Source: a virus (taxonomy: Duplodnaviria; Caudoviricetes). From it: a stretch of DNA of 64,000 nt. Shown piece after piece: positions 4,144 to 7,911 of this stretch (positions are counted from its first letter, which is position 1; the number at the start of each line of letters is the position of its first letter). The position numbers and the translations under genes are program-made. The stretch lies in IMG/VR virus record IMGVR_UViG_3300042970_000025; one strand, written 5' to 3'. The notes under the pieces were generated by a model. That model was not told the origin of the DNA and did no database searches. It saw only the letters and a list, made by a program, of their open reading frames with translations.

Positions 4144-4539
4144 TTACCGAAAAAATTTCTTGAATTTTTTCTTGGCGGCTGCGATAGACTCGTGCACGGA
4201 CTTATAATCCCTGCCTTCACGACGAGCGATCTCGCGCTCAGAAAGACCGCCTAAAAAGTGCTGGATCAACCGGCGCTGCTGTGTATCAGTGAGGTGGGAG
4301 AAAGCGGTCCTCATTTTGGCATCGCGCTCATCTGTGTCATTGAAAAGATTTTCTGTAGGATCAGGCAAACCATACTCTTTGCCCGCATACTTAATGCCGT
4401 CCAAAGAAATGCAGTGCCTGCGTTCCTTCCGGTCTGCAGAGTCTTCAGCACGGCGGCTTGCCGTGATGAATTCACCAATATCGGCTGTGGCTTCAACTGC
4501 TGTGACTTCGCCAGTGACTGATTTATAGCTGATCTTCAT
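4144..4539 (-). CDS. Sigma-70 region-4-like HTH protein
   Basis: RHCISLD, LTDTQQRRLIQHFLGGLSEREIARREG..YKSVHESI; start MKISY after GGAGG. Confidence 0.75.
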   Translation of the reverse strand: MKISYKSVTGEVTAVEATADIGEFITASRRAEDSADRKERRHCISLDGIKYAGKEYGLPDPTENLFNDTDERDAKMRTAFSHLTDTQQRRLIQHFLGGLSEREIARREGRDYKSVHESIAAAKKKFKKFFR

Positions 4540-4545
4540 AAAAAA

Positions 4546-4661
4546 CCTCCATTCGCTTGTGCGGAATGGAGGAATCATCACGATCGGCTGCAAAAGGCAT
4601 AAAAAGGCCACTACAGTTTCTGAAGGAGAGTGCTCTCTCCATTCCGAAATTGCAGCAGCCT
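4546..4661 (-). promoter_or_regulatory. Structured 5' leader: long terminator hairpin plus U-tract (4601-4661) and SD-sequestering hairpin (4546-4572)
   Basis: Inverted repeats seen directly; G-U pairs favour minus-strand RNA. Confidence 0.65.
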
Positions 4662-4853
4662 GCTCAAAAGACAGCTGGTTTCACTATTCAGTTTTTCCGC
4701 CTCGTTCAGTTGAGCGACAGGTGATCAATCCGTCCAGAACAGAGGTGGTTGCTCCGTGCATAACTCGAACAATATTTTTGAGCTATGAATCGACTTGTGT
4801 TAAACTATAAACATATGTCAACGTTAACATTCCATCGATCTGGAACTATCTGG

Positions 4854-4915
4854 ATTATATGACAGGGCTTTGTTTTCTTGGGTCTTGTTTGGGTCAGGTT
4901 GGGTCAGCGTGGTTC
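4854..4915 (-). promoter_or_regulatory. TATAAT box (4854-4859, minus) with four ~10-bp-spaced TTGGGTC-like repeats
   Basis: ttgggtc at 4878, 4889, 4899 and gtggttc at 4909. Confidence 0.55.
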
Positions 4916-4940
4916 AAAACGTGAGAAGGGAGAAAACTTC

Positions 4941-6053
4941 GTGGATTTCAAAACATTGTTTGCCGTTTTGAAAAAATATCTGTCTGACGGTGCAGATGTC
5001 CCTGAATTTATGAGAACTCTCATTTCAATGATTACAGAGCTTTCTGAGGAGGATTGGGATGTAAAAAGAGATCCATTAGGAATTGTAAGAGATGCGACTC
5101 TACGGAATTATGCGAAACGAGGATTATCCAAAAAGTTTGCGAAACAGGTCGCCTATAGGTTGAACAGGGAGAATATGATTGCCTGGATCGGGGGAAGCGA
5201 CATCTCTAACCGTGAAATGATGGCACAAGACTTTCACCCTTATGATCCTTCTGTAAATGCAGATAATGTGGCAGAGAAAGTTGCGGATTGGATGACAGAC
5301 TGCATTCGCAAACTGGCAGGTCTTGTTCCTGCAGCTGAAATGAATCAGCAGAAACAAGAGAAGCAGGCGTCTGATTTAAAAAGTAAATATGGTAACTATC
5401 TATTAGCCGAGTCAGATCATCACTGTCCAAACTGTGGCAGGCGGTTGATTATTTCCAGAAATGGGGAAACGGTTCCTGTATATGAAGTCAGCATCATTGA
5501 TCAATCAAAGGCTCCGGAGCCGCAGAACCTGCTTGCCATGTGTCCGAACTGTGCAGCTGTTTATCAAATGGACGATGATGCCAAGCTTCAGAAAGAATTG
5601 AAGGCGAAAAAGAATATTCTTTCCACTCATGAACAGAGTATGGAATTGCTGGAAGATCTTCCGTTGGAGCGGGGCATTACGGGTGTCGTGACAAGGATTA
5701 AGAAATTGAAAGAAAAGGATATTGCTGAATCTAAACTTGATCCGAAGGAGCTGACACAAAAGCTCGATCCTTCGAAGGATATGGCGATTTATCTTTCGGT
5801 GAAATTATATGTTACGACCTATTTCAATAAGATAGATCAGATTATGATCAACCTGGATAAGAAGAAGCAAATTGATTATGACGAAGTCCAGAGACAGATG
5901 AATGGAATGTACCGAAGACTTAACAAGACAAAAAAATCCAAAGCAGAAATCTTCAATGAGATCTCAAGGAAAGTGCAGCGGGTAACGCTGCAAGAGGATG
6001 TTTTTTGTCAGATTGTTGTTTCCTACTTTATTCAGAAATGTGAGGTGTTCTAA
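4941..6053 (+). CDS. ABC-three-component (Lamassu LmuA-like) effector: helical N-terminus, Zn-binding HNH-like domain, ABC-3C C-terminal domain
   Basis: CPNCG...NLLAMCPNC; C-terminus IVVSYFIQKCEVF; GTG start after AAGGGAG; upstream of middle component and ATPase. Confidence 0.75.
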   Translation: MDFKTLFAVLKKYLSDGADVPEFMRTLISMITELSEEDWDVKRDPLGIVRDATLRNYAKRGLSKKFAKQVAYRLNRENMIAWIGGSDISNREMMAQDFHPYDPSVNADNVAEKVADWMTDCIRKLAGLVPAAEMNQQKQEKQASDLKSKYGNYLLAESDHHCPNCGRRLIISRNGETVPVYEVSIIDQSKAPEPQNLLAMCPNCAAVYQMDDDAKLQKELKAKKNILSTHEQSMELLEDLPLERGITGVVTRIKKLKEKDIAESKLDPKELTQKLDPSKDMAIYLSVKLYVTTYFNKIDQIMINLDKKKQIDYDEVQRQMNGMYRRLNKTKKSKAEIFNEISRKVQRVTLQEDVFCQIVVSYFIQKCEVF

Positions 6054-6283
6054 TGCAGCTGCCGAACAAACTTTATTCATATGAAAAAAGCACCCTCTAT
6101 TATGTTCCGATGGTGCTGCAGCTACTGAAAGATGGCCCAATGAAGGTAATGGACTTATATGACTCTATGCGTCATTTGCTTAAAGATCCGACTGATTTTC
6201 TGGCAGTAATGGACTGCCTTTATGCATTGCGTGCGGTTGATATTAATTCAGATGAAGAGGTATATTCATGCTTAAAGAAATGA
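6053..6283 (+). CDS. ABC-three-component middle component (LmuC-like)
   Basis: 76 aa, M.LPNKLYSYEKS..., DCLYAL; translationally coupled on both sides. Confidence 0.7.
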   Translation: MQLPNKLYSYEKSTLYYVPMVLQLLKDGPMKVMDLYDSMRHLLKDPTDFLAVMDCLYALRAVDINSDEEVYSCLKK

Positions 6284-7911
6284 GTTCTCCAGTATTTATA
6301 GAAAAAGGTGAAGTTCGACCACCGATCGTATTCAAGCGAGGACTGAATGTAGTGCTTGGTAAAGAGGATGCGGCAAACTCCATAGGAAAATCATCTGCCT
6401 TGCTTGCAATAGATTTTGTGTTTGGAGGAAATACCTATTTAACAAGTGATGGTATAAGGCACATGGGCCATCATACGATTTACTTTACGTTTGAATTTGA
6501 TGGAAGAGATTTCTACTTTGCCCGAAATACAGCAGATGCGGAGCAGATTCAGATCTGTGATATGAATTACAATCTGACAGGCAATGTCTGGACAAAAGAA
6601 CACTTTACCAACTGGCTGAAGCAGAAATATCATATGGATTTTCCGGGATTAAAGTTCCGCCCGGTGCTAAGCAGCTTCTTTCGTATTGCCGGAAAAGAAA
6701 ATACAAATGAACGCAGACCACTGGTCGGTCTTCCCGGTGATAGCATGGAAAAATCAATAAATAGATTGATCACGCTTTTCAATCGCTATGAGGATATCGA
6801 GGATTACTCGAAGCGGAAAGATGAGCAGAAGGAAAAACTGAAAGCTTACAATAAGGCACGGGACTATCAGTTCATATCAAATCTTGTCGGCGGCAAAGAA
6901 CAATATGAAAAAAATGAAGCAGAAATTAAATCCCTTCAGGTTCAGTTAGATACATTAACTTCCGCACAGGCGGAAGCTAGTTCTGAGGAAGATATCCAAA
7001 AGAATATGCAAAAAGCGGAGCTAAAAGACAGAAAGCTGAGATTGGAAGAGCAGATCGATTCCCTACGTAGGAGACTATCTCTTCTGGATTTAAGTATTGA
7101 GTATGGTGTTTATCCGACAGAGAATGATCTTTCTGCGCTTCAGGAATTTTTTCCGGAAGTAAATTTGAGAAAACTGTATGAAATAGAAAAATACCATAGG
7201 AAGCTTGCAAAAATACTCGACGGACAGTTCACTGCCGAACGGGACAATGTTCAGGCTGAATTAGAGGGATTGGTAGAACAGCGGCAGTCTTTGGTTAATC
7301 AAATTCATGAGCTTGGTTTTGTCGGAGGACTTTCAAAGGAATTCTTAGACAAGCATTCTGAGATTAAAGGAAAAATGGATGCACTGAGAATACAAAATCA
7401 GGCATATGTGATGAAGAAAGAACTGGAGGATCAGAAGAAGGCAGCAGATGATATGCTGAAGCGAGCAATCGCATCCATTCTTGCAGATATTGAACAGTCT
7501 GTTAATACGAAAATGAAAGAATACAACGATATGTTATTCGCGGAAGAACATAAACCGCCGATTCTGCATTTTAACGATTACAACAGTTATCGATTTGAAA
7601 CACCAGGTGACAGAGGAACCGGTTCGAATTATAAGGGGATGGTTATCTTTGATCTGTCCATTCTAGCGTTAACAAATCTTCCTGCGATTGCACATGACTC
7701 ACTGATCTTAAAAAATATTAGCGATGGGTCAATTGATGGTATAATGAAGATCTACGAACAAAGCAGGAAACAGATATTTATTGCTTTCGATAGACAGCGT
7801 ACCTATAGTAAAAGTACTCAGAAAATATTAAATGATAATACCGTGCTGAAGCTTTCTGATCAGCACTGTGAATTATATGGGGATTCTTGGAATGTAGAGG
7901 TAAAACGGTGA
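6268..7911 (+). CDS. DUF2326 SMC-like ABC ATPase (LmuB-like)
   Basis: NSIGKS Walker A, long coiled coil, GTGSNYKG signature region, IAHDS Walker B, KQIFIAFD. Confidence 0.85.
   Translation: MLKEMSSPVFIEKGEVRPPIVFKRGLNVVLGKEDAANSIGKSSALLAIDFVFGGNTYLTSDGIRHMGHHTIYFTFEFDGRDFYFARNTADAEQIQICDMNYNLTGNVWTKEHFTNWLKQKYHMDFPGLKFRPVLSSFFRIAGKENTNERRPLVGLPGDSMEKSINRLITLFNRYEDIEDYSKRKDEQKEKLKAYNKARDYQFISNLVGGKEQYEKNEAEIKSLQVQLDTLTSAQAEASSEEDIQKNMQKAELKDRKLRLEEQIDSLRRRLSLLDLSIEYGVYPTENDLSALQEFFPEVNLRKLYEIEKYHRKLAKILDGQFTAERDNVQAELEGLVEQRQSLVNQIHELGFVGGLSKEFLDKHSEIKGKMDALRIQNQAYVMKKELEDQKKAADDMLKRAIASILADIEQSVNTKMKEYNDMLFAEEHKPPILHFNDYNSYRFETPGDRGTGSNYKGMVIFDLSILALTNLPAIAHDSLILKNISDGSIDGIMKIYEQSRKQIFIAFDRQRTYSKSTQKILNDNTVLKLSDQHCELYGDSWNVEVKR

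Follow-up and report, generated by a model that had tools for sequence, protein, structure and literature searches.

A prophage-borne short Lamassu cassette with a histidine-less HNH effector and a leader repeat array that co-varies with the effector's N-terminal domain

Introduction

Lamassu systems occur in about 15% of prokaryotic genomes (10.1101/2025.04.02.646746). The closest described relatives of the cassette treated here are Vibrio cholerae DdmABC (an LmuACB system with a Cap4 head) and Salmonella enterica LmuACB (9hqx, 9nxx), which share with it the gene order A-C-B, overlapping genes, an LmuA built from a head and a helical C-terminal domain (CTD), a short LmuB with a Walker B motif of the hhhhD[S] kind, and a small middle component (10.1101/2025.04.02.646746). 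Here, we analyze a 64,000-nucleotide stretch of the virus record IMGVR_UViG_3300042970_000025 (Duplodnaviria; Caudoviricetes), referred to below as the window, in which positions 4941-7911 encode a short type II Lamassu. Unlike in the two systems above, the head of its LmuA is not a PD-(D/E)xK nuclease but a new helical domain joined to an HNH fold without its catalytic histidine. The cassette further differs in having a fourth gene, which encodes a helix-turn-helix (HTH) protein, and a conserved leader in which a repeat array co-varies, and its position, facing a phage early operon, is fixed. We show that the sequence of the array follows the N-terminal domain (N-domain) of LmuA, and we propose that LmuA may act as a binder of its own leader.

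The "HNH" subtype of short Lamassu (10.1101/2025.04.02.646746) and the PADLOC entries PDC-M68 and PDLC03857 most likely represent the same family as ours or sister families; they combine CTD11, MC7, and DUF2326 with an HNH-like module, and PDLC03857 matches the N-domain. In the part of the paper available to us, an HNH effector domain is listed, and nothing is said on its activity, on the loss of the catalytic His, or on an N-domain, an HTH gene, or a leader array (10.1101/2025.04.02.646746). EcoKMcrA (6ghc) and Cap5 (7rwm, 8fm1) of the cyclic-oligonucleotide-based antiphage signaling system CBASS have the same beta-beta-alpha-metal fold, Cys4 zinc site, and structural Asn, whereas LmuA is devoid of the general-base His and of the His after the second CxxC.

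Results

The cassette is a four-gene, prophage-borne short type II Lamassu in the order lmuA-lmuC-lmuB-HTH (Table 1), with a 370-residue LmuA of the CTD11 type, an LmuC of the MC7 type, and a DUF2326 LmuB, and the lmuA/lmuC/lmuB junctions overlap or abut. Three of the four structural features that mark short type II Lamassu are present, and the fourth, a head that is an enzymatic effector, is the one that the cassette lacks. The size and features of LmuB fit the "short" class (10.1101/2025.04.02.646746). LmuB carries a Walker B-like motif, AIAHDS, and lacks a CxxC hook; its P-loop is noncanonical when searched as a regular expression (GK..x8..GKSS). The CTD of LmuA superposes on the solved LmuA chains 9nxx_A (Z 5.8) and 9hqx_A (Z 4.8), values that are modest for a helical domain. 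The start of lmuA is most likely the GTG at 4941 because GGGAG (4928-4932) stands eight bases upstream and because both the PADLOC LmuA match and the homologues, which begin M(D/E)FK, start there. A preliminary description of this locus had placed a Lamassu-like operon divergent from a sigma-like gene across a shared control region of roughly 400 bp, and the distance between the two start codons is indeed 401 bp.

The family is large. We found 475 relatives among 90% clusters and 559 among 50% representatives, and matching loci numbered 526 among 185,579 one-genome-per-species GTDB contig sets and 170 in IMG/VR. Judged by name, the hosts of the fetched loci are Clostridia, Bacilli, Actinomycetota, and a few others. 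Homologues of lmuC and lmuB lie downstream of lmuA in nearly all of the 160 fetched loci in which the contig extends far enough.

LmuA retains the HNH fold, the Cys4 zinc site, and the structural Asn, and it has lost the general-base His. The two CxxC pairs noted in the preliminary description are present as C162/C165 and C201/C204 (numbered from the GTG), as are its YEVSIID and CPNCAAVY stretches. A phmmer comparison aligns residues 174-236 (counted from the TTG) with the HNH domain of EcoKMcrA, pairing CENCG with CPNCG, VHHV with YEVS, and DNCVALCPNCH with QNLLAMCPNCA, so that the HH of McrA falls on EV (E182-V183) and its CH on CA; neither of the usual catalytic positions holds a His. The comparison HNH gene at 48612-48989 is, by contrast, canonical (EEVHHIIP...CRSCHEKIH). 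In the predicted structure of LmuA (predicted local distance difference test, pLDDT, 93.2), residues 131-233 superpose on McrA with a Z of 8.3 (root-mean-square deviation, rmsd, 3.7 over 89 aligned residues), on Cap5 (Z 8.1), on IscB (Z 8.0), and on the HNH domain of Cas9, and Cap5 ranks first in Foldseek.

The loss is shared by the relatives. Among 21 close and 103 distant homologues, full invariance is limited to L154, C162, C165, and C201, and N196 and C204 are nearly invariant. The Cys4 pattern is found in 88 of 98 cluster representatives, down to 22% identity; strand 1 reads YE(V/I)xxID or similar, with a His in none, and the remaining 10 representatives do not match the Cys4 pattern that we used. 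The His after the second CxxC is retained in some relatives. Since the loss of the catalytic His spans the whole family, the dead HNH is not special to this element.

The N-domain, described beforehand as a helical N-terminus, consists of seven helices in residues 1-130 (pLDDT ∼93 in the full model). Modeled in isolation, it reaches a pLDDT of 89.4, and this model has no convincing match among solved folds (VIA-align best Z 5.0 at an rmsd of 7.3; Foldseek best E 0.46). A fold of a known toxic effector, which would have spoken against a regulatory role, was likewise not found by Foldseek or VIA-align. No polar residue is invariant among 44 aligned N-domains, and indeed no column is, F3 being near-invariant; this argues against an enzyme. 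Helices 51-60 and 64-71, separated by a 3-residue turn, look HTH-like by eye only. The PADLOC LmuA model PDLC03857 comprises the N-domain and CTD6 with no HNH, and the LmuA of the CTD6 subtype has no detectable HNH module.

Hachiman HamA1 proteins were considered as sharers of the N-domain and hence as an independent test, but the two matches in 399 Clostridia genomes (L171 in G276 and L172 in G339) proved to be an LmuA-like variant with a different head. This variant is 399-483 residues long, its N-terminus matches the PADLOC HamA1 N-terminus, and it has an HTH_26 gene directly upstream of lmuA and no repeat array. Fusions to nonribosomal peptide synthetase (NRPS), HsdS, and MobA sequences look like assembly or gene-call chimeras and were left out.

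Similar spurious N-terminal extensions in several homologues pointed us to conserved DNA upstream of lmuA. Within the 110 nt upstream of every lmuA inspected, three to four direct repeats with a 10-bp period end 18-32 nt before the start codon, and triple repeats are visible between the promoter and the ribosome-binding site (RBS) of lmuA in almost every homologous locus. Under a strict rule (a 7-mer with at most one mismatch, a period of 9-13, and at least three copies), 69 of 98 distinct upstream regions contain at least three copies, as against 12 of 490 random 120-nt windows drawn from the same loci. The array is the sole such cluster in the 64 kb of the window, and within the 17-kb loci, arrays are essentially restricted to the spot upstream of lmuA. 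The repeat cores are lineage-specific: GGGTCA, GGTTCA, GGTACA/G, GGTGCA, GGATCA, GGGACA, AGGACA, GAGATAC, GGATAC, GATGCA, GAGACA, TTCCTCA, ACGCGCCA, and TGCCTACA were seen. The array is kept in 12 loci that have no sigma-like open reading frame (ORF) within 900 nt, although several of these have only a short upstream sequence and two have a sigma-like ORF at 1.2-1.5 kb; it is absent where the sigma-like gene is present without lmuA (L163, L167).

The same promoter-box-array layout is carried by a second Lamassu subtype (L161, L166, L168, L173-L184), which is of the CTD6/MC2 kind, has an LmuB of the unrelated AAA_23 family (PDLC03867), and has only the N-domain in common with the first. In L186 (3112-3869), the N-domain is a separate 235-residue first gene (profile E 4e-30) directly behind a CGGTAGG triple. 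We note that in cassettes of the CTD6 type the head can thus be a separate first gene, as in L186 and L185 (2405-3851, a 465-residue protein), and that the C-terminal tail of these separate-head genes repeats a short N/Q/H-rich motif seen at the start of the headless LmuA.

Which protein the array tracks was assessed by comparing repeat distances with protein distances over 61 nonredundant loci. The Spearman rho was 0.43 for the LmuA N-domain, 0.42 for LmuB, 0.30 for the LmuA CTD, and 0.03 for the C-terminal 90 residues of the sigma-like protein. The correlation of the repeats with the N-domain persists when the sigma-like protein (0.43) or the CTD (0.32) is held constant, and the reverse partial correlations vanish (-0.04 for the sigma-like protein and 0.00 for the CTD, each given the N-domain). 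Over the 55 loci that bear the HTH gene, the repeats correlate with the N-domain given the HTH at 0.31 and with the HTH given the N-domain at 0.12; in a Mantel permutation over these loci, none of 2000 permutations reached the observed rho of 0.40. Individual pairs of loci tell the same story. Between L028 and L079, the sigma-like proteins are 90% identical, but the repeats are unrelated and the N-domains reach only 24% identity; L008 and L085 have their repeat in common, with N-domains at 80% and sigma-like proteins at 24% identity. At residue 56 (LRNYA in the window), members of the closer subfamily have N with xTCA repeats, S with x(A/G)CA repeats, and K with GACA or GATAC repeats, and the repeat class changes at least six times on the LmuB tree. 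The array sequence thus goes with the N-domain of LmuA; it does not track the sigma-like protein, and it tracks the HTH protein only slightly. The co-variation with the upstream repeats for which the preliminary description had suggested a survey is found with the effector itself. LmuB, as a tracker in its own right, is countered by the second subtype, in which an unrelated LmuB family is accompanied by the same N-domain and array.

The leader places the array downstream of a strong promoter. The rightward promoter, P_lmu, reads TTGAGC (4778-4783), a 17-nt spacer, and TGt TAAACT (4801-4806), and a near-consensus version (TTGACA-17-TGnTATAAT), with its -10 element about 90 nt upstream of the array, is found in 81 of 94 loci. 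Because this promoter precedes both the leader box and the array, the array lies in a transcribed leader of ∼128 nt, and the first-order target would be the Lamassu operon rather than the leftward promoter. In the 53 loci where the box pattern matched, the box mostly precedes the best triple repeat by 32-34 nt. The only leftward candidate in the window is weak (TTAACA, 4803-4798; 18 nt; AAAAAT, 4779-4774), and the mean promoter score of the best minus-strand candidates across loci is 8.4, compared with 11.5 for the rightward ones. These scores and the place of the rightward promoter speak against taking the box for a leftward -10 element (TATAAT) whose -35 is replaced by the repeats. At the predicted start of the rightward transcript lies a 14-bp imperfect palindrome, TGTCAACGTTAACA (4816-4829), a candidate operator for a dimeric HTH protein such as the 73-residue Cro/C1-type protein of the cassette.

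Opposite the cassette, the sigma-like gene heads a leftward phage early operon, followed by p119, a Gp157-like gene, AAA_24, and a helicase. The Pfam match to PF08281 (26.5 bits) is just above the cutoff of 25.7; no region 2 match was found in this 131-residue protein, and TIGR02937 covers only profile positions 96-163 (region 4), below its cutoff. The leftward promoter candidate would start ∼20 nt before a DUF2800 RNA motif, which occurs at the same place in four of eight other loci tested; a literature search by those words returned no paper mentioning this motif. The hairpin that holds the RBS of the sigma-like gene has an alternative pairing at 4637-4646, and the minimum free energy fold of the leader has a z of -5.06. 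The minus strand at 4546-4748 looks like attenuator or riboswitch-like control of phage early genes.

The divergent placement against sigma-like genes, which had also been suggested for a survey, is widely conserved. In 71 of 85 loci, the ORF closest upstream is encoded on the opposite strand, and 54 of those upstream proteins form one BLAST cluster; among 42 sampled upstream proteins, Pfam finds Sigma70_r4_2 in 24 and Sigma70_r4 in 10. A search with a profile of these proteins places a divergent sigma-like ORF no more than 900 nt from lmuA in 80 of 92 distinct loci. This reverses the result of a tblastn search, in which the sigma-like protein of the window was found upstream in only ∼12 of 160 loci and which had suggested no conserved link. 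The genes behind the sigma-like ORF (103 ORFs sampled) include 25 for DUF2800 proteins, 21 for Enc34 single-stranded DNA-binding proteins (SSBs), 5 antirepressors, and SNF2 helicases. In L161, a relative of this phage that carries the other Lamassu subtype, the sigma-like protein is 68%, p119 97%, and the Gp157-like protein 91% identical to those of the window, and in the phage relatives L163 and L167 an XRE gene stands in place of Lamassu. Since the sigma-like genes evolve independently of the cassette, the cassette behaves as swappable cargo in a fixed slot of this phage group.

The preliminary description had stated that no repressor gene lies next to the control region. None abuts it, yet the fourth gene of the operon encodes a Cro/C1-type HTH protein. 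A homologue starts -60 to +200 nt from the end of lmuB on the same strand in 90 of 94 distinct loci. At 49-82% identity, it is better conserved than LmuA, and its recognition helix is largely conserved. Variable restriction-modification genes follow it. In the window these belong to a low-GC defence island (8164-18925) with a SNF2 helicase (PADLOC C3a139, 2e-127), DUF4391, a type III-like methylase, a Res-like helicase-endonuclease, and a GmrSD whose N and C parts are separate genes. A second HTH_26 copy (62686-62892), 55% identical to the first, lies between an lmuB remnant and BrxA/BrxB; it fronts a bacteriophage exclusion (BREX) operon, so the HTH protein may regulate a defence island just as well as act as a phage repressor.

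The far end of the window holds further cargo. The lmuB remnant (62039-62612) is a decayed C-terminal part, 34-40% identical, with an apparent frame break near 62446-62454; to its left are a WYL/WCX (BrxR-like) gene (60976-61950) and a LexA-like S24 repressor gene (60065-60712), and the stretch 62039-63999 resembles another cargo slot, one whose Lamassu cassette has been overwritten. The minus strand of 21146-60712 belongs to a second, different prophage, with three serine-recombinase genes at its end (21146-24817), structural genes, the HNH gene at 48612-48989, a family A DNA polymerase, an Enc34-type SSB, a DUF2800 protein (57205-58344), and the LexA-like repressor.

Table 1. Features of the Lamassu cassette and its control region in the window
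Feature	Position	Strand	Details
Sigma-70 region-4-like gene, 131 aa	4144-4539	-	ATG 4539, preceded by GGAGG; Pfam Sigma70_r4_2 (PF08281) 4.9e-6
Hairpin and U-run containing the GGAGG RBS of the sigma-like gene	4546-4572	-	Inverted repeats I5, I2
DUF2800 RNA motif, early-operon leader	4581-4748	-	Rfam RF02960; 88.7 bits vs gathering 60.2, E 4e-16, full-length 1-158
Overlapping back-to-back promoter candidates	4774-4806	both	Rightward P_lmu and weak leftward candidate
Conserved leader box	4854-4867	+	ATTATATGACAGGG; family consensus ATTATATAAAATGG; core palindrome TTATATAA
Array of four direct repeats, period 10-11 bp	4878-4916	+	TTGGGTC 4878, TTGGGTCA 4889, TTGGGTCA 4899, TGGTTCA 4910
lmuA	4941-6053	+	GTG start most likely, 370 aa
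LmuA N-domain, residues 1-130	4941-5330	+	All-helical; PADLOC LmuA PDLC03857 match 2e-13
LmuA central HNH-fold zinc module, residues 131-233, without catalytic His	5331-5639	+	Superpositions on McrA Z 8.3, Cap5 Z 8.1, IscB Z 8.0; sequence alignment; family-wide pattern
LmuA C-terminal domain CTD11, predicted docking and oligomerization module	5679-6053	+	Pfam 3.6e-36
lmuC, ABC-3C middle component MC7	6053-6283	+	Pfam 5.9e-22; start overlaps lmuA stop
lmuB, short ABC ATPase resembling structural maintenance of chromosomes (SMC) proteins, 547 aa	6268-7911	+	Pfam DUF2326 2e-16; PADLOC PDC-M68B 9e-11
Cro/C1-type HTH gene, 73 aa	7915-8136	+	HTH_26, PF13443 1.5e-20; starts 4 nt after lmuB stop

Discussion

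From the sequence comparisons, we propose that LmuA may be a nonenzymatic, sequence-specific binder of its own leader, such that the output of the Lamassu sensor would be changed gene expression, at the least autoregulation, rather than cleavage; we hold this with confidence that is evenly balanced between belief and doubt. The LmuA head, that is, the helical N-domain, perhaps with the dead HNH zinc module, would be a nucleic-acid-binding module, with the array in its own leader as the cognate site. By analogy with the solved Lamassu complexes, LmuB and LmuC would hold an LmuA monomer through its CTD, and on meeting DNA ends they would release it, allowing CTD-mediated tetramers to form. Four phased sites would be a good match for an oligomer whose heads are flexibly linked. 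By occupying them, free oligomeric LmuA could then keep the operon from being transcribed (or translated), including the Cro/C1 HTH gene and, by read-through, the downstream restriction genes. The simplest consequence would be that LmuA represses its own operon; as a further extension, the level of the HTH protein might be lowered enough to free the overlapping early promoter. The suggestion made at the outset that the effector is a DNA-binding regulator therefore survives in part: the missing enzyme signature, the missing toxic fold, and the repeats that co-vary with the N-domain speak for it, whereas the target envisaged then, the leftward promoter, gives way to the operon of LmuA itself.

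Parts of this arrangement have precedents. In autoregulated toxin-antitoxin operons and in C-protein-controlled restriction operons, a strong promoter is checked by a product of the operon, as proposed here, and response regulators of the OmpR/PhoB type bind 10-11-bp phased direct repeats with several protein copies, again as proposed here. The cassette differs from those cases in that the presumed binder would belong to an SMC-type sensor complex, as its effector subunit, and in that the sites are leader sequences downstream of the promoter.

Several observations weigh against the proposal that LmuA binds its leader as a regulator. LmuA 1-130 has no Pfam or NCBIfam match, and Foldseek and VIA-align found in it no recognizable HTH or other DNA-binding fold. 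Binding of the leader at the RNA level is equally compatible with the sequence data, although the 10-nt period fits the helical repeat of DNA better. A group of near-identical loci (L185, L187, L188, L190) has a TTTCTAAG triple with a 9-bp period before the 465-residue first gene, in which an N-domain profile search found nothing. The residue-56 co-variation amounts to only two independent pairs on supported branches and four on all branches, all in the same direction and too few for significance. The correlation of the repeats with LmuB (0.42-0.44) equals that with the N-domain and is statistically inseparable from it because the genes travel together.

The alternative that we take most seriously, while still judging it unlikely, is an ordinary abortive-infection Lamassu in which the N-domain (or residual HNH activity) is toxic and released on foreign DNA, and the array is no more than an operator that tightly represses a toxic operon, without bearing on the output. 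Every Lamassu system tested so far is a defence system with a toxic effector, the cassette is part of a low-GC defence island that also holds SNF2/DUF4391/type III restriction-modification and GmrSD genes, and a very strong promoter with operator-like leader elements is typical of toxic operons. However, such a toxin would have to act through an N-domain that has no conserved polar residue and matches no known toxin fold, or through an HNH module that has no catalytic His in any representative matching the Cys4 pattern, that lacks a matched Cys4 zinc-ribbon pattern in some members, and that is not detectable in the CTD6 subtype.

The preliminary description had suggested that the sensor triggers induction or escape of the element. 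In the form that the data allow, the sensor would be part of the lysis-lysogeny switch of the prophage: LmuA released on DNA ends (damage or superinfection) would shut off the strong rightward HTH operon, free the weak early promoter, and induce the prophage; such control of induction by LmuA is possible, and as an account of the locus we rate it improbable. The divergence of the cassette from the early operon is maintained across two Lamassu subtypes, the leftward genes are the early replication genes of the phage, and the promoter candidates for the two directions overlap in the window. In L161, moreover, the cassette fills the entire space between the recombinase genes and the control region, and in the element studied here no further repressor was found next to the early operon. 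Set against this, the sigma-like genes and the cassettes have unlinked histories, the phage relatives L163 and L167 carry an XRE gene instead of Lamassu, and the HTH family that also fronts the BREX operon may serve the defence island; the left part of the element lies beyond the window, and a repressor could be encoded elsewhere in the element. An extension to a large set of prophages from Bacillota and Actinomycetota would have the Lamassu sensor, once a suicide device, now provide the input of a genetic switch, the effector being a sequence-specific binder with allele-specific operator arrays, so that DNA ends would silence the strong lysogeny-side operon of Lamassu, Cro/C1 HTH, and restriction genes, the overlapping early promoter would fire, and the prophage would leave a damaged or superinfected cell; this broader scenario seems to us similarly improbable.

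That the array is read by another protein (the Cro/C1 HTH protein, the sigma-like protein, or a host factor), with an unrelated role for the LmuA N-domain, is very unlikely: the HTH and sigma-like proteins do contain genuine HTH motifs and occur in most loci, and one locus group keeps a triple repeat without a recognizable N-domain, but the repeats are uncorrelated with sigma region 4, as L028 and L079 illustrate, the HTH recognition helix is largely conserved while the repeats vary widely, the HTH protein retains little correlation with the repeats once the N-domain is accounted for, and repeats that differ between lineages of a single bacterial class cannot be put down to a host factor.

Conclusions

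What appears to be new is the co-varying array itself, the tie between this array and the N-domain in both subtypes, and the measured linkage to sigma-like genes; our literature searches, in which these features were not searched by name, surfaced no paper reporting a Lamassu leader array, a fixed HTH gene, or a linkage to a phage slot. Lamassu has been understood as a sensor that unleashes an enzyme, and the "HNH" branch has no working enzyme but instead a variable helical domain matched to a variable leader array. If LmuA binds the array, the cassette would show that an SMC-type DNA-end sensor can be coupled to transcription in nature, and the family would be a source of many orthogonal protein-operator pairs recognizable directly from sequence. 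With promoter, operator, sensor, and candidate repressor all within 3.4 kb, whether prophages use defence-type sensors in deciding on induction becomes a concrete, testable question.

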